This document shows positions 2,073-56,911 of a stretch of DNA of 64,000 nt, one piece after another. The stretch covers positions 3,870 through 67,869 of the forward strand of contig CAJVYQ010000022.1 of NCBI GenBank assembly GCA_913009825.1, read 5' to 3'. Position 1 is the stretch's first letter, and every line of letters begins with the position of its first letter. This stretch comes from an uncultured Deferribacteres bacterium (GTDB lineage: Bacteria > Zhuqueibacterota > JdFR-76 > DREG01). A program made the translations under genes and the position numbers. The notes under the pieces were generated by a model. It saw only the letters and a list, made by a program, of their open reading frames with translations. It was not told where the DNA came from and did not search any database.

Positions 2073-2147
<75 letters not shown>

Positions 2148-2556
2148 AGAAGTCATCCCGGTTCTAATCGGCATGTCGCCCATAAGTTCAATTTTGGTAG
2201 AAAAAACAGAACAAGTCCGATTAAGTGTCGGGCTTTTTTGTTAGCGGATTTATTTTACGACTTGCAAAATTTACTTGAGCATGATGGCGCTTTTATCAGG
2301 AATTTGTAGTTGTTTGGCATGCCTCAGCCAATGACTTAAATTGTGGACTGATAAGGAAAAAGGCGTTAGCCATCATTACGAGGCAATGGCTGAAGGCGTT
2401 GAAGGGATTTTCAGATGAACCGTTATTGAAAGGAAAATGATCGGATTGAATTTGTTGAGACGTTTCTTTAGTTCAGATAAAGCGCTCCGACAAATCTGGG
2501 CGTTTCTCTTCGGAAAGGTTTAAGTTGGAGACAGGTAATTTCTGGTAGTGAAATTT

Positions 2557-2769
2557 TCATTTGTAGTAAATGGAAATAAACGATCCTTCGCTTGAAATGC
2601 TGCATTGGGAAATTTTTGCATCTTTCCGGTTGGAAATGCGCTTGCGAATCTGTTCTTTTAATTCATCACTCGATCTGAATTGTCCGATGAAAATTACATC
2701 TTCGTCATATTGGCTGTATGGCTGGTTGGATGCTGATTCCATATCTATTTTATCCTGATCCGGTTTCAA
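2557..2769 (-). CDS. Hypothetical small protein (70 aa)
   Basis: ORF with TTG start preceded by GAGGAG (RBS-like); no recognisable domain. May be spurious. Confidence 0.3.
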   Translation of the reverse strand: MKPDQDKIDMESASNQPYSQYDEDVIFIGQFRSSDELKEQIRKRISNRKDAKISQCSISSEGSFISIYYK

Positions 2770-3172
2770 TTTTTCTCCTCAAAATTAGAACGTCTATTTA
2801 TAGGACGCTTAATAAAACAAAATAGTTTACCGTTTTTTTCTTTTTGATAAAATTTGTTGTTGAATGTTAAACAATAAAAATCTTTTTATTCAGATAGATT
2901 TTTTTTGTAACATATTACTTCTTTTTGAAATGAAACGCCCAATTTTCATTCCCGCATGATTTAAGCGGCTGCCTGTTGCAGACAAACCAATAATTAGTGT
3001 TTGTCAAAGAACTAAAATGTAACATTTTTATATAAAATCTTACTAAATAGATAAAATTTTTCTTGACTTTGCATTTTTACATTGGTAAACTTAAGTCAGT
3101 ATTAATAATACCCTATTAAATAATTTTATTTAACGCAATCTAATTGCAAATCGTTTCCCAACCGGAGTATTT

Positions 3173-3538
3173 ATGAGCAGAGGAAAATTAAGATTTATTG
3201 AAGAAATGAGAGGTGACGTTACCGTTCTTCACCTGAACGGAAAATTAATCGGTGATGAGGAAACGAAAAAATTGAGTAACCGTATTAAAGAGTTAATTGC
3301 AACGGGAACAAAGCATTTTGTCATCAATTTGAGTCAGGTGAACTGGATCAACAGCAGCGGAATCGGCGCTTTAATTGCCTGCATGACCAGTGTGCGTAAC
3401 GGCGGCGGCGATTTGCGACTGGCAATTTTGACGAATGCGGCAAAAAAATATTTTAAAATCATGAATTTGGATACTGTCATCAAAATATATGATAACGCAA
3501 ACGATGCGGTTAAAAGTTTCACCGAAGAAAATAGGTAG
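3173..3538 (+). CDS. STAS-domain protein (anti-sigma factor antagonist, SpoIIAA-like)
   Basis: 121 aa; STAS pattern with the conserved phosphorylatable serine context (INLSQVNWINSSGIGALI) and C-terminal LDTVIKIY motif. Confidence 0.8.
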   Translation: MSRGKLRFIEEMRGDVTVLHLNGKLIGDEETKKLSNRIKELIATGTKHFVINLSQVNWINSSGIGALIACMTSVRNGGGDLRLAILTNAAKKYFKIMNLDTVIKIYDNANDAVKSFTEENR

Positions 3539-3853
3539 GCGAAAAGCCGGTAGAATAACACACCGCAACGGTCTGATTTTCCAACTAAACAATATGAATG
3601 AGCAAGAGAAAATGAAGGGGGAAATGCTCTATTCAGCTTACCTCATCACTGTTCTGTTTTTTCTCTTCCTCAGCAAAGGACATGCCTGTACAAATTTTTT
3701 AGTTTGGTGAATGCATATTATTTTTATTTTGTTCTGTGCAGGTAAAAAGTAATATATAAAAAAAATGCTAACCCGGCGCTCATCGTGTCAAGTTAAATCC
3801 GTGTCGTTGGGATTCTCTAAACAGGGATGAAATTCGACATTATTATCCAGTTG

Positions 3854-5017
3854 GTGCGAACTGATCATATCCGGTTCAAGTGCCACCTGCTCAAAGCCTA
3901 ACCAACAAAGCAGTAGTGAACCTCACGTGTAAACTCAGTAATGAGAATGCGAAGCTGAGGGAATCAAGAATGCAGGCTGCGTCACTGAGCCCTGAAATAT
4001 GTATAGTTGTGGTTTTTTAGATAATTCCCGATCTGTATTAGGGAAGAAAGCCGACGGCTTTGAGCTGTCCGGAAGGCAGAAGTCTTGCAAGCGGGGCATA
4101 TTTTCACAGGGATAATCCGGGAACTTGTCTGCCCGTCCGCAGGCGGGAGAGAGCCAACTGTCTCCTTGCAAGATTGCGGTCATGGGAGTACCAATCCGGG
4201 AAGGGCAAACCCCTGGCTTTTGTAAGGTTTTGCTCTACCCTTACAAGAGAGTCCGAGCAGGAATACCACGAATAAGGGAGCATGCGAAGGTATCCGGTAG
4301 CGATAGCTAACAGCGAAGTGGCCGGAGAAGGGCTTTTGGCAGTCTTAGTGGAACATAGTAGTGAAGATTTGTGAGTCATTTCTCACACATCGTGCAGATG
4401 GGGAAGTATACCAAGCCCAAGCGACCCACTGTATCCGCCATCAGACCGGTGGACATTCCCAAAGACAGGAATGGCGAATGTGACACCGGGCATAACGAAC
4501 CACTTTAGGGAATTATAGGAAAAACACAGAGTTTAGCAGCCATATCACCGAAACTGGAGAGAATTGCAGAGCTTGCAGAAACAGATTCAGAGCGGCAGTT
4601 TATTTCCGCAGCACATTTGTTAAACGTTGAATTGCTTTACGAGTCATTCAGGCAATTACGTAAAGACGCTGCGAGTGGCGTATCCGGCGTAACAGCGTAT
4701 GAATATGCAGAACGCTTCGAAGAGAATCTTGGAAATCTACATGACAGATTACGGACGAAGCGTTATATTGCACCGCCGGTAAAAGGAGTGTTGATAGACA
4801 AGGAGAAAGGCAGGCAGCGTCCACTTGGCATCCCAGAGCATGCAATTTGAAAGCATTTGTAAGTGGGCGGCAAAGTTATGCGCTCTGTCCTTTTCGGACA
4901 GAATTATACAACCGCTGATAAGCTATCTCTTAGTGCGGTTGTATACCGAAGAACCGTATGTGGTAATCCCACAAGTACGGATCTGTGGGGGGAGCGGCGA
5001 GTAATCGCCGATTCTAC
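3854..5017 (+). mobile_element. Degenerate group II intron-like element (RT ORF truncated); boundaries approximate
   Basis: GTGCG at 3854 (typical intron 5' end); GC-rich non-coding structured stretch 3860-4520; reverse-transcriptase N-terminal fragment; 34-nt domain-V-like hairpin at 4950-4984 (GAACCGTATGTGG-TAAT-CCCACAAGTACGGATC, 2-nt bulge on the 3' strand); domain-VI-like hairpin 4993-5014 with a bulged A about 7 nt before the proposed 3' end. Confidence 0.5.
4525..4850 (+). pseudogene. Reverse transcriptase (group II intron-type) N-terminal fragment
   Basis: Translation ...LLNVELLYESFRQLRKDAASGVSGVTAYEYAERFEENLGNLHDRLRTKRYIAPPVKGVLIDKEKGRQRPLGIP matches RT domain 0/1 and stops right after GIP; the finger/palm domains and maturase region are missing. 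Confidence 0.55.
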
Positions 5018-5019
5018 CT

Positions 5020-5649
5020 GGAAGCAGGTATGAAGTCAATACTATACTTGCAAAAGTACATACCTTCAGGCATCGGGTTTGTCTGAAAACAATCTACTCC
5101 TGCGGATTACGCCTGAATGAAGGCATTCATCTCCAGGTGTGTGACATCAACAGCGACCCCGAGCAGATGCTCGTCCATGTACGGTTTGCAAAAAGAGGAA
5201 TGCAGAGATTCGTGCCGTTGCCGAGTACCACCTTGAATATGCTCAGAGAACTATGGATGACTCACAAAAATCCTGTATGTTTCTTCCCGGCAACAGGCCG
5301 CGGTAGGGGTAAGACCAGTATGACTTCCGCAACTGAACCGGTCTCCAGAACCACCATACAAGATGCTTTCAGAGCAGCGCTCAAAGAAAGCGGTATCCGT
5401 AAAAGAGCTTCCGTGCATACATTACGTCATTCTTATGCCACTCATCTGTTGGAAAAAGGCGTTAACTTAAGGCTGATCCAGCAGTATCTGGGACATCGTT
5501 CGCCTCGTACCACCGCTATTTATACTCATTTGACCAAAACTGCTTTTGAAGCCGGATACCTGTCTGCTACAGGCAGGCAAGGCCATCGAAGAATTAATGA
5601 CCGATATTTAGCTACGACACAGACAACCTCCCGCGTTAAAAGAAACTAA
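5020..5649 (+). pseudogene. Tyrosine recombinase (phage integrase family), catalytic-domain fragment without N-terminal domain
   Basis: Open frame from 5005; ...CLKTIYSCGLRLNEGIHLQVCDIN...VHVRFAKRGMQRFVPL...HTLRHSYATHLLEKGVNLRLIQQYLGHRSPRTTAIYTHL carries the R..HxxR..Y catalytic signature. The only start is a GTG at 5137; no core-binding domain upstream. Confidence 0.7.
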
Positions 5650-5664
5650 AACATTGAGATTGCT

Positions 5665-6313
5665 ATGTTAGAAATGGCTGATATTTTCCGTCAGTACGGA
5701 CACCAATACATCGATCAATACGGTGAAAAAATGCTGCCGGGACACAAGCGAGTTATCCGTAATCTTCCGGGCCAAGTTCCGCGATGCTCTGAAACAAACC
5801 GACCTGTTTGATAAAGTGCCGCATGTGGTTTGGAAAAAAGATTGGGTGGTTCATGCCAAAGAGGCAGGAAACGGTGAAAACGTGCTCAAGTATTTCGCTC
5901 CTTATGTCTACCGGGTGGCTATCAGCAACAGAAATCTGGTTAAGCTGGAAAACGACCACGTTACCTTCCGGTTTAAGGACAGCAAGACAAAGCAGTGGAA
6001 GATGATGACGTTGCCTGTCTTTAAGTTTATGCATCGTTTCTTACAGCATGTACTGCCGAAAGGGTTCAAGAAAATACGATATTACGGATTCCTCAGTTCC
6101 AACAACAAACTCACGCTGAATCTGCTGAAATACCGACTGGGAACCCCTAAATCCAAAACCGATGAAGTCGGCGATGAACCGGAAAAAGACGGCAACGGGA
6201 TTCATCACACAACAAAAAAACACATCTGTCCCGTGTGTGGAAAACCGATGGTGTTGGTGGCTGTCATTTCCCGGTTCAGCAGAGACCCCCCCGTAAATCG
6301 GGCGGCGGCATAA
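5665..6313 (+). mobile_element. IS91-family transposase gene remnant (internal deletion/frameshift)
   Basis: N-terminal piece MLEMADIFRQYGHQYIDQYGEKMLPGHKRVIRNL (5665-5811) resembles IS91-family N-termini. A second frame (5723-6313) encodes the C-terminal region VLKYFAPYVYRVAISNRNL...VTFRFKD...MMTL...FLQHVLPKGFKKIRYYGFLS. The zinc-finger/HUH core between them is missing. Confidence 0.7.
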
Positions 6314-6630
6314 GTAGTAATAAAACAGACATATATGGCATCGATAGCTTGACTTTTTCAAAAAACGCGATCCGGGGGAACAGGATCCGTATGTCCTTAT
6401 CAGCCAAAATGAGGCGAAATGAACGTATGAAACGGAAATATGGATGTCAAAGAACAGGACAAAAACATGAGACTGAGCTTTTTGTCCGAATATTTGCTCA
6501 AATTGTCAACAATAGCCGGGCTCTGGTCAGAAACAGACCGGTTACGAAAACCTCAATACAGCAAACCAATGTTCCGGACTGAGTTATAAACCGGAAATCT
6601 GCTCTGTACAAGCGGCTTCGTCCAACCCAG

Positions 6631-6757
6631 GATTAGTGTGGTGGCTTCTTGCAATCCGGAACGTCTTCCTTATTTAAAACTTTTGTGATAGTTAAATTAA
6701 CCTCTGCTATTTTACCCGGCGCACCACACTAATCCCTTATTCGTTACTAATCCCTTA
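6631..6757. repeat. 14-bp inverted repeat (GGATTAGTGTGGTG / CACCACACTAATCC) followed by a tandem 18-bp direct repeat (ACTAATCCCTTATTCGTT x2)
   Basis: Read directly from sequence: arms at 6631-6644 and 6722-6735; the tandem repeat lies at about 6720-6757. Confidence 0.5.
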
Positions 6758-6781
6758 TTCGTTTATGTTGCTAATTTATAA

Positions 6782-7588
6782 TTATTGTTTTAACCATTCA
6801 ATTGCACTCTCTAACATCTCATTATTAACTGAATGACCGCCCATAAAATCCCGAAACGTCACATCATAACCAAAATTTGAGAGAACATTCTTCGCTTTAA
6901 TTCCTAATTCATATTTCACCCTTTTATCATCTTTTCCATGAGCAATAAATATCCTTAAACTTTTAGCAGATTTGATATCATCTTTTTCAAGCCAATTATC
7001 ATCTTTTTCACCAGTAAAAGGGGAAATCAACGGTTCTAACAAACCGGGGCCTGAATGAATGATAAGCCCTTCATATAAATTGGGATTTCTTATACCGGCG
7101 ATATACGCAAAAACGGCTCCTTGAGAAAAACCAAATAAATAGATATCTCCAATATTATATTGTTTCTTCAACGACATTGCTAAATCGCTTACGTATTTCA
7201 CAACTAAATTTGATGCACGTTCAATTAATATCTTATTTCCAGTTGGCCATAAGGCCCAATCATATCCCAATTTCTTATCAACTAACCAGGGATAAGGAGC
7301 TTGAGGAACCGCATAAATAAAATCTGTAATATTTAAACTATCCCAAATTGTAATAAACCGTTCAAGACTACTTCCACCACCATGTAAACCTATTACAAGT
7401 ATATACTTATTTTGAGGATCATAATTTACCGGAAGTTTAATGTTACATTTAAAAAGTGCACTACTTTCAAAATAGATCGGGTTTGTTTTGTTATTACGTG
7501 TTGAATCAATCTGGGATTTTTGAGCATAAATGGAAGACGTGAAAGAAAAAACTAAAAAAAAGAAAAACAGATTTTTAGATTTTGTCAT
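6782..7588 (-). CDS. Secreted alpha/beta-hydrolase (phospholipase/carboxylesterase family)
   Basis: N-terminal signal peptide (MTKSKNLFFFFLVFSFTSSIYA); GFSQGA nucleophile elbow (GxSxG); HGGGS oxyanion region; C-terminal HGKDD. Confidence 0.75.
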   Translation of the reverse strand: MTKSKNLFFFFLVFSFTSSIYAQKSQIDSTRNNKTNPIYFESSALFKCNIKLPVNYDPQNKYILVIGLHGGGSSLERFITIWDSLNITDFIYAVPQAPYPWLVDKKLGYDWALWPTGNKILIERASNLVVKYVSDLAMSLKKQYNIGDIYLFGFSQGAVFAYIAGIRNPNLYEGLIIHSGPGLLEPLISPFTGEKDDNWLEKDDIKSAKSLRIFIAHGKDDKRVKYELGIKAKNVLSNFGYDVTFRDFMGGHSVNNEMLESAIEWLKQ

Positions 7589-8060: not shown

Positions 8061-8133
8061 CGTCCCCAAGGGGAGTCGAACCCCTGTTGCAGGATCGAAA
8101 ATCCTGAGTCCTGGGCCACTAGACGATGGGGAC
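8061..8133 (-). tRNA. tRNA-Glu (anticodon TTC)
   Basis: Reverse complement reads GTCCCCATCGTCTAGTGGCCCAGGACTCAGGATTTTCGATCCTGCAACAGGGGTTCGACTCCCCTTGGGGACG; anticodon arm CAGGA-TTTTCGA-TCCTG; closely resembles canonical bacterial tRNA-Glu. Confidence 0.85.
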
Positions 8134-8182: not shown

Positions 8183-8256
8183 GGTGAGAGACGGGACTTG
8201 AACCCGCGACCGCCAGGGCCACAACCTGGTGCTCTGCCAGTTGAGCTACTCCCACC
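8183..8256 (-). tRNA. tRNA-His (anticodon GTG)
   Basis: Reverse complement G(-1)GTGGGAGTAGCTCAACTGGCAGAGCACCAGGTTGTGGCCCTGGCGGTCGCGGGTTCAAGTCCCGTCTCTCACC; anticodon loop TTGTGGC; extra 5' G typical of tRNA-His. Confidence 0.85.
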
Positions 8257-10332: not shown

Positions 10333-10390
10333 ATCTGAATTGAGCGATTGTAAGGCGATTCGCCTGTCTGCACAGGCAGGCTGAATCGCC
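10333..10390. repeat. Family-B repeat, truncated copy (CTGAATTGAGCGATTG end plus GGCGATTCGCCTG...CAGGCTGAATCGCC hairpin)
   Basis: Near-identical to the cores at 41359-41416 and, reverse-complemented, 56850-56911. Confidence 0.6.
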
Positions 10391-41358: not shown

Positions 41359-41487
41359 CCTGAATTGAGCGATTGTAGGGCGATTCGCCTGTCTGCACAG
41401 GCAGGCTGAATCGCCAGACGTATTTGTATTAAAAATGAAAATCCGTTTAGTAACAAAAACAAGGTCAAAAACAAGAGAATCGCTCAA
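41359..41487. repeat. Family-B MITE-like element with 17-bp terminal inverted repeats (CCTGAATTGAGCGATTG ... GAATCGCTCAATTCAGG)
   Basis: Ends and internal GGCGATTCGCCTGTCTGCACAGGCAGGCTGAATCGCC hairpin read directly; same core as 10333-10390 and, inverted, 56850-56911. Confidence 0.7.
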
Positions 41488-56776: not shown

Positions 56777-56911
56777 CCTGAATTGAACAGTTCTCTTGTT
56801 TTCAAGCTTGTTTTTGTTACGAAGAAAATTTTCATTTTTAATGTAAATCCGGTTGGCGATTCAGCCTGCCTGTGCAGACAGGCGAATCGCCCTACAATCG
56901 CTTAATTCAGG
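56777..56911. repeat. Family-B MITE-like element, inverted orientation (CCTGAATTGAACAGTTC ... CAATCGCTTAATTCAGG)
   Basis: Terminal inverted repeats plus the reverse complement of the family-B core hairpin (GGCGATTCAGCCTGCCTGTGCAGACAGGCGAATCGCC). Confidence 0.7.

Follow-up and report, generated by a model that had tools for sequence, protein, structure and literature searches.

What are the two adjacent hairpins at positions 4950-5017 of this DNA, which follow a truncated reverse transcriptase (RT) frame and run into the open frame of a recombinase-like protein? The stretch analysed here, called the window throughout, is 64 kb of contig CAJVYQ010000022.1 from an uncultured Deferribacteres bacterium. 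The original prediction, made from the letters alone, took the hairpins for domains V and VI of a group II intron reaching from 3854 to 5017, and proposed that this intron had been inserted into, or fused with, another mobile-element gene. Taking the explanation as a whole, we are highly confident that 4950-5017 is the 3' end of a decayed group II intron, comprising domains V and VI but lacking the last five intron bases. The locus is a dead group II intron of a known family lying against a truncated element of the IS91 type of insertion sequence (IS). It is ordinary mobile-element wreckage and not a working or new system.

Two hairpins with the architecture of domains V and VI

The first hairpin, GAACCGTATGTGGTAATCCCACAAGTACGGATC at 4951-4983 on the forward strand, occurs a single time in the window, against 0 expected from 100 shuffles. 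It is 33 nucleotides (nt) long, with a 5-nt loop, an AA bulge at 4973-4974 and a U.G pair beside the bulge, and thus has both the length (~34 nt) and the 2-nt bulge on the 3' strand that are looked for in domain V. The second hairpin, at 4987-5019 on the same strand, carries a GUAA loop at 5001-5004, a bulged A in the branch-site position at 5016 and a G.A mismatch between 4994 and 5011. For the 86 nt from 4940 to 5025 the folding energy is -33.4 kcal/mol (z = -3.2), and none of 200 shuffles was equally stable.

Pairing in both hairpins is kept, and covaries, among relatives. In an alignment of 26 distinct copies (A3), a hand-written structure of domains V and VI was scored against 500 shuffles and against slid controls; 98.4% of cells were paired and 12 pairs showed changes on both sides, values that no shuffle reached, while the slid controls were only 33-52% paired. 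The domain V helix accounts for 12 pairs, with 99% of cells paired and compensatory changes in 3, and in the domain VI helix 97.8% of cells are paired and 9 of 14 pairs have changed on both sides. The identification of the hairpins as intron domains thus stands, supported by Rfam matches, relatives and covariation alike.

The same alignment moves the branch point. A5011, originally put forward as the bulged A, corresponds to a G-paired C in the majority of the other 25 sequences and to a U or G in three, and the G.A mismatch 4994/5011 is specific to the window copy. The conserved bulge is A5016, present in 26 of 26 sequences. It would be the predicted branch point, six bases ahead of the intron 3' end, and together with the 6-nt tail CCYGGA it falls within the 6-8 nt that separate the bulged A of domain VI from the 3' splice site.

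Domain V of the window lacks the AGC triad and has AAC (4952-4954) in its place, with A4953 opposite A4981. AAC opposite A or G recurs in 35 of the 36 distinct domain V sequences of the family; it characterises the lineage and is no sign of damage to the window copy. The abundance of the family and its intact RTs suggest that AAC may be compatible with catalysis.

A default Rfam scan of the window at gathering thresholds returned three tRNAs and no intron, because the match to RF00029 (Intron_gpII) lies below that model's gathering score of 40; an E-value threshold is needed to see it. The window copy then aligns end to end with two models, RF00029 at 4949-5017 (31.1 bits, E = 9e-4) and RF02005 (group-II-D1D4-6; gathering score 49) at 3877-4119 (38.9 bits, E = 3.5e-9). 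The lack of an intron-model match, which was to count against the intron, is thus true only of the default threshold, and matches appear both at the E-value threshold and in relatives. Relatives match RF02005 over its full length; eight of them pass at 88-120 bits, and three of these (L053, L077 and L084) also pass RF00029 at 42-45 bits. Their matches show that the element is of a known, Rfam-modelled type, and the intron belongs to the IIB-like lineage represented by RF02005, a model that leaves out ~95 nt at the 5' end of the intron, where the basal helices of domain I are formed. In PLSDB plasmids, blastn with the intron found no match.

A widespread family of short introns

The RT-remnant frame matches five short metagenomic proteins at 72-88% identity, and blastn pairs window 3780-4837 with positions 2179-3264 of locus L001. 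When species-representative genomes were scanned for the domain V pattern, seven loci (L012-L018) emerged in metagenome-assembled genomes (MAGs). One of them, L016, is a full-length copy (positions 4540-6782) with a 475-residue open reading frame (ORF) whose RT passes NCBIfam TIGR04416 group_II_RT_mat (348 bits, cut-off 300) and Pfam RVT_1. Intact members of the family are ~2.24 kb long and encode a 475-residue reverse transcriptase/maturase without an endonuclease domain. A metagenome scan with the upstream motif TCGTTGGGATT-N8-16-ATGAAATTCGA yielded more than 120 loci, and the family, with more than 120 copies, is found in sediment, marine and hot-spring metagenomes and in MAGs labelled Calditrichia, Desulfobacterales, Thermodesulfobacteriota and Deltaproteobacteria.

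ORF-less members of ~905-1120 nt are common, keep domain I intact and score ~100 bits on RF02005; examples with intact domain I are L017, L018, L027, L032, L066, L067, L068, L072, L077, L085 and L116. A mini-copy of 432 nt (L120) joins domain I straight to domains V and VI. Two loci of different subfamilies, L049 and L057, have the same foreign sequence, ACTGGCTTCATAATACACACCTCCGTACG, in place of all but the first few bases of domain VI (TGTGGGG in L049, TGAGGGG in L057), which suggests that another element inserts at this point. L083 is also broken after TGTGGGG, by a sequence that differs from the one in these two loci.

Across the flanks of L016-L138, insertion sites share a pattern, YUAACMA-N3-4 followed by a 7-nt intron-binding site 1 (IBS1) on the 5' side of the intron and A-SCWGACGG on its 3' side, beyond which they show no relation to one another. 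Sites with long flanks available lie between genes. Joining the flanks of 15 complete copies in search of an interrupted gene restored none, which likewise indicates that the family sits in intergenic DNA.

The intron extends beyond 3854-5017 at both ends

Our best estimate for this degenerate, ORF-deleted intron (RF02005/IIB-like) is 3783-5022 on the forward strand, so that the extent first proposed, 3854-5017, is wrong at both ends. Covariation, pairing between exon-binding site 1 (EBS1) and IBS1, and the junctions of tandem copies together indicate that 3782 is the last exon base and 3783 the first of the intron. The most likely start is thus UCGUGUC at 3783, and a start at 3785 (GUGUC) is a possible alternative.

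Homology among copies in unrelated contexts begins ~70 nt upstream of the GTGCG at 3854 and ends at common points, and the stretch 3783-3853 is more conserved across the family than the sequence beyond 3854. This stretch, on the forward strand, is the basal module of domain I. RNAalifold, applied to 29 diverse relatives, assigns to it the 5' strands of three nested long-range helices, whose 3' strands are contiguous within domain I (GGGUAGC-UCGGG-AA-CUGG), and it also folds locally into a stem-loop whose 8x8 internal loop is conserved (TCGTTGGGATT...ATGAAATTCGA). Pairs in the helices covary: AU7/CG13/GC8, GC14/AU13, GC8/AU20 and GC22/AU4/GU3.

The GTGCG at 3854-3858 (forward strand) is a decoy that forms the loop side of a hairpin in domain I, which in relatives reads GUGGG/CCCAC. 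That hairpin covaries (ACAGG/CCUGU in L044) and takes inserts of 7 to ~90 nt, and at the position of GTGCG other subfamilies have GTGAT, GTGAG, GTGCA, ATGAT and similar sequences. Immediately upstream, AUUAUCC (3842-3848) and GGAUAAU (4110-4116) covary within the family (GUUACCC/GGGUAGC) as a helix of domain I. Together with CAGUUG/CAACUG and GUGCG, this helix imitates an IBS2-IBS1-GUGYG arrangement and is a trap for automated boundary calling. The first ~70 nt of family introns are probably taken as exon by standard annotation.

Exon recognition points to the same boundary. The EBS1 hairpin GCCGAC...GGAAGGC lies at 4050-4078 on the forward strand, with EBS1 itself, TGAGC, at 4061-4065. Over 61 distinct copies, its loop is complementary to the upstream flank, with a mean duplex score of 5.49 compared with 4.22 +/- 0.12 for permuted flanks (maximum 4.56), a difference of ~10 standard deviations; loop and flank pair, for example, as GUUAUCCAC/GUGGAUAAC, CGGCUCA/UGAGCCG and CCAGUGG/CCACUGG. 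The pairing nearly always stops two bases before GUGYC. In the window, UGAGC pairs over 5 bp with the IBS1 GCUCA at 3778-3782, and the 5' exon or target site (3768-3782, forward strand) also includes CTAACC at 3768-3773, the counterpart of the family motif YTAACMA. This flank pattern, YTAACMA-N-IBS1, recurs upstream of more than 100 copies in unrelated contexts. Two other placements of EBS1, in the CCAACUG hairpin and in the GAGACCAGGGCAUG stretch, were considered; neither covaries with the flank, and the GCCGAC...GGAAGGC loop was preferred.

Two loci contain copies arranged head to tail. In L072 (reverse strand, ~1060), CCCGGA is followed directly by TCGTGTCC, or in RNA form by UCGUGUCC, and in L077 (reverse strand, ~85) it is followed by TTGTGTC. 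Both junctions fit a second insertion into an already occupied site whose IBS1 was intact. Circularly permuted group II RNAs (PMC8637638) were considered as the source of these D5-D6-D1 junctions and rejected; the copies are plain, full and head to tail. The 5' end UCGUGUC deduced in this way has U1 in 76, C2 in 74, G3 in 77, and Y4 and G5 in all of 78 sequences. Relative to the GUGYG consensus, UCGUG agrees at positions 3-5, and a start 2 nt later would agree at four of five.

At the other end, CCYGGA after the branch A is conserved in every genomic context; 24 of 31 copies agree on A as the seventh base, and no base is preferred at the eighth. Thus the intron ends at 5022, or at most at 5023: GGA at 5020-5022 (forward strand) closes a tail that reaches 6 nt beyond the branch A, and A5023 is exon base +1.

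The window copy has lost essential parts

Between the two Rfam matches lies the remnant of the RT/maturase (4398-4850, forward strand; GIIGKTQSL...RPLGIPEHAI), which preserves ~110 N-terminal codons and is 72% identical to residues 38-147 of the 475-residue RT of L016. Its stop codon at 4848-4850 leaves about 100 nt to domain V, as originally noted, and the hairpins do belong with this truncated gene. The likely start codon of the remnant has changed from ATG to ATA (4515-4517), and an in-frame TAG at 4506-4508 cuts the upstream extension of the frame. Alignments with L003 split between window 4146-4837 (L003 62-766) and window 4856-5023 (L003 1783-1951), so that ~1 kb of the RT gene is gone from the window. 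The deletion junction lies at 4838-4855 on the forward strand, with ~990-1016 nt lost, and L003 blastn and L016 matches give the same breakpoints. We placed this deletion by blastn coordinates, as a global MAFFT alignment with L016 misplaced it.

The core of domain I (3877-4119, forward strand), which gives the RF02005 match, is damaged as well. At 4085-4090 (forward strand), ~43-46 nt have been lost, including the conserved block CACCACCGGGGTCT, as judged from alignments with L001/L002 and L016 and from the RF02005 structure lines. Part of the lost block, CACCACCGGGGUCU, supplies the 3' strand of a long-range helix, GAGCCCCG/CGGGGUC, in the RF02005 model. Furthermore, 20 nt (GTCTGCCCGTCCGCAGGCGG), a copy of a short repeat seen elsewhere in the window, have been inserted at 4126-4145 (forward strand). 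From this damage to domain I, the window copy is predicted to be inactive in self-splicing and lariat formation.

Many short family members are probably spliced or mobilised in trans, and the window copy could likewise be a functional ORF-less intron served by the RT of full-length copies. The many ORF-less members with intact domain I (~905-1120 nt) lend this idea some appeal, as does the retention in the window of domain V, the branch A, a 5-bp EBS1-IBS1 pairing and a target-like 5' flank. We nevertheless judge it improbable. The conserved CACCACCGGGGUCU strand is gone and only 38.9 bits remain on RF02005; domain I carries a 20-nt foreign insertion and the domain VI stem a mismatch; the end-points of the deletions are unlike those of the recurrent ORF-less forms; and the 3' exon is a truncated IS, which leaves nothing for splicing to restore. 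Since ORF-less relatives keep domain I and the window copy does not, the latter is regarded as dead, a reading of the sequence in which the RT deletion, the mutated start codon, the lost strand and 20-nt insertion in domain I, and the G.A mismatch in domain VI all have a part.

A chimeric junction with an IS91-type element

The sequence that follows the intron is a 5'-truncated, internally deleted IS91-family element at 5023-6746 (forward strand), recognised by blastn to an intact copy at L004. That copy is a 2.57-kb IS91-type unit in which a recombinase gene (294 codons) precedes a gene for a 373-residue Zn_Tnp_IS91/Y2_Tnp transposase. The window element matches it in two segments, at 93% and 88% identity: L004 436-1152 corresponds to window 5022-5757, and L004 1624-2566 to window 5756-6699. 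L004 1-435 has no match anywhere in the window, so the N-terminal part of the recombinase is missing, and L004 1153-1623, also unmatched, represents 471 nt missing from the transposase gene. The tyrosine-recombinase gene fragment (5023-5611, forward strand) is in addition shifted out of frame by a 19-nt insertion at 5559-5577. Accordingly, the element has neither both ends nor the intact genes of a complete IS91 element. The transposase gene (5665-6313, forward strand; deletion at ~5757) remains recognisable, with matches to Pfam Y2_Tnp (6e-36) and NCBIfam NF033538 transpos_IS91 (150.7 bits, cut-off 125).

The frame that had been described as recombinase-like from 5005 onwards, over domain VI, is indeed open and matches Pfam Phage_integrase (1.3e-33). 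The match starts at its tenth residue, and recombinase similarity begins only at 5022-5023. The closest homologue, P0006 (97% identity), is a 294-residue protein encoded on the L004 contig and has an N-terminal SAM-like domain. The first codons shared with the intact element are AGC AGG TAT in the window and AGC AGA AAT in L004, a synonymous Arg change followed by a residue that varies among homologues, which confirms that IS-derived sequence starts at the intron's last base. The TAA at 5002-5004, in the domain VI loop, is the stop that precedes the open frame, and 5005-5021 is domain VI read through by chance. No homologous frame crosses 4850-5020, a stretch where an uninterrupted coding frame would have spoken against the intron, and small ORFs across 4825-5033 have no Pfam match. 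The idea that the 3' exon of L003 also encodes the recombinase, read as PG(S/T)R(Y/L)E, was rejected, since the two share CTGGAA only, which is the intron tail plus exon base +1.

Could the intron, as 3854-5017 (GUGCG...UAC, branch A5011), interrupt the recombinase gene, such that splicing would restore the recombinase? The fit of GTGCG to the GUGYG consensus invites this reading, as do the RF00029 alignment, which stops at 5017 with A5011 as the bulged A, the complementarity of AUUAUCC (3842-3848) and CAGUUG (3848-3853) to domain I loops at 4110-4116 and ~4153-4159, and the open frame that runs from 5005 into the recombinase domain. Yet the N-terminal half of the recombinase is absent both upstream and window-wide. 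Joining 3853 to 5018 yields no homologous frame, a stop stands at 3769-3771, and relatives carry indels in the stretch. A5011 is a paired C in most relatives of A3, and CCYGGA after 5016 is conserved in every context. The 70 nt upstream of 3854 travel with the intron into unrelated sites and tandem copies and form the basal helices, and the CAACUG-type loop does not covary with the supposed IBS1 (L044, L050 and L056 have the same loop and different 'IBS1' sequences). This reading is already largely refuted, and we give it very little credence.

The proposal that the intron was inserted into or fused with a mobile-element gene is therefore right in that the two are physically joined; it is not an insertion that splicing could repair, given that the first ~435 nt of the IS are nowhere in the window. 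The 5' flank of the intron is a typical target site of the intron family and not IS sequence: GCUAACC...GCUCA fits the pattern YUAACMA-N-IBS1 and pairs with the copy's own EBS1. The 3' flank, A followed by GCAG, resembles the 3'-exon preference A-SCWGACGG yet is IS sequence. Because an IS lacking its first ~435 nt starts right after the last intron base, the two flanks come from different places and the junction is chimeric.

Such a junction may have arisen from two copies. One would have occupied its native intergenic site, and the IS recombinase gene would have received a second by retrotransposition. The native 5' flank could then have been brought against the IS-derived 3' flank, with loss of the sequence between them, either by homologous recombination of one copy with the other or by a deletion that stopped at the intron boundary. 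We infer that a history of this kind would be the simplest.

Points that weigh against a decayed intron of this extent

Several observations pull in the other direction. The window copy stays below the Rfam gathering score for both RF00029 and RF02005, owing to its deletions, its insertion and the family AAC/A.A positions in domain V. A domain V with AAC where AGC is expected would ordinarily be taken for inactive. Just ahead of the GUGCG at 3854 stand complements of domain I loops (AUUAUCC/GGAUAAU and CAGUUG/CAACUG), which standard annotation would call IBS2, IBS1 and the 5' splice site, and UCGUG in place of GUGYG is an unusual 5' end that comes from comparison among copies. Finally, neither a second intron copy nor the reciprocal junction is found in the 64-kb window. 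One might also take the hairpins for stem-loops formed by chance, or for a terminator of transcription behind a pseudogene, with no link to intron catalysis. This idea could draw on the frequency of G+C-rich hairpins in intergenic DNA and on the silent default Rfam scan, but it is already refuted and practically excluded by the end-to-end RF00029 alignment (E = 9e-4), the 83% identity that 4856-5023 shows with sequence following intact RT genes, the extensive covariation of domains V and VI, the Rfam scores of relatives, and the lack of a T-run after the hairpins.

Comparison with known introns and elements

Among described group II introns, the decayed intron and its family share several features with the bacterial IIB-like classes E and F (for example Pe.th.I2 and Ge.ur.I1-1; PMC3753933), whose RTs also lack the endonuclease domain (the family RT has 475 residues) and whose ribozymes are likewise small once the ORF is removed, with an IIB-like layout. 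A 5-nt domain V loop is an idiosyncrasy of IIE and IIF introns, and IIF introns likewise have a spacer of 6 nt from the branch A to the 3' splice site (Nagy et al. 2013, PMC3753933). In contrast, classes E and F have GUGYG-type 5' ends and end in AC (PMC3753933), whereas the family has UCGUG, ...GGA and AAC in domain V. The shared features that suggest a tentative link to classes E and F are the 5-nt domain V loop, the missing endonuclease domain and the 6-nt tail.

The window copy resembles ORF-less bacterial introns in having lost the domain IV ORF and kept domains I-III, V and VI; such introns occur in multiple copies per environment or genome, presumably served in trans by full-length copies. 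Simon and colleagues reportedly described ORF-less, degenerate group II intron copies in bacterial genomes in 2008. Such copies are also treated in Mohr et al. 2010 (PMC2882425). The window copy differs in its additional ribozyme damage and its chimeric 3' flank, which make it a relic and not a trans-dependent intron.

Further parallels are introns that reside in insertion sequences, among them RmInt1, a class D intron in ISRm2011-2, which is also an endonuclease-less intron at an IS gene and chooses its target by EBS-IBS pairing. The IS that hosts RmInt1 is intact and supplies both exon halves, whereas in the window the IS lies on the 3' side only, and the usual sites of the window's intron family are short intergenic motifs and not insertion sequences. 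The adjoining element has the same layout as IS91 elements with an upstream tyrosine recombinase gene, of which L004 is an example, but is truncated, deleted and frameshifted.

What the locus and its family may mean

In itself, the locus, where a dead intron lies beside an equally dead insertion sequence, has mainly annotation value and marks a past rearrangement in the intergenic region downstream of a STAS-domain gene. Its methodological lesson is that GUGCG with IBS-like neighbours is a decoy, and that the true ends and the branch A become visible only when many copies are compared.

The family raises a broader question. The lineage may be an active group II class that departs from convention three times, with AAC and a purine-purine mismatch in place of the AGC/G.U triad, 5' UCGYG in place of GUGYG, and 3' ...GGA in place of AY, although we regard this as less likely than not. 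If the family does splice by branching, the triad G and the first-position G would be dispensable, or able to vary together with other positions, in a natural ribozyme. The review by Zimmerly and Semper 2015 gives the triad as AGC or CGC only (PMC4424553), and a limited literature search found no description of an AAC triad, a UCGUG start or a ...GGA end, and nothing relevant on the motifs of the family or on the D1D4 models of Rfam. That these features are truly undescribed seems to us doubtful. Should a domain V with AAC and a non-GU 5' end prove both undescribed and functional, they would be relevant to the catalytic core that group II introns share with the spliceosome.

Neighbouring features and short repeats

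A STAS-domain gene lies just upstream of the intron at 3173-3538, and tRNA genes at 2073-2146 (forward strand), 8061-8133 and 8183-8255 (both reverse strand) flank the mobile-element remnants. The pattern TGTCTGC-N-GCAGGC occurs five times in the window against 0 expected, at 4126-4144, 5561-5578, 10365-10381 and 41390-41406 on the forward strand and at 56864-56880 on the reverse strand. Two of these copies are the 19-20-nt insertions that disrupt domain I of the intron and the IS recombinase gene, and the other three form the centre of an intergenic palindromic repeat of ~80 nt (...GGCGATTCGCC TGTCTGCACAGGCAGGC TGAATCGCC...).

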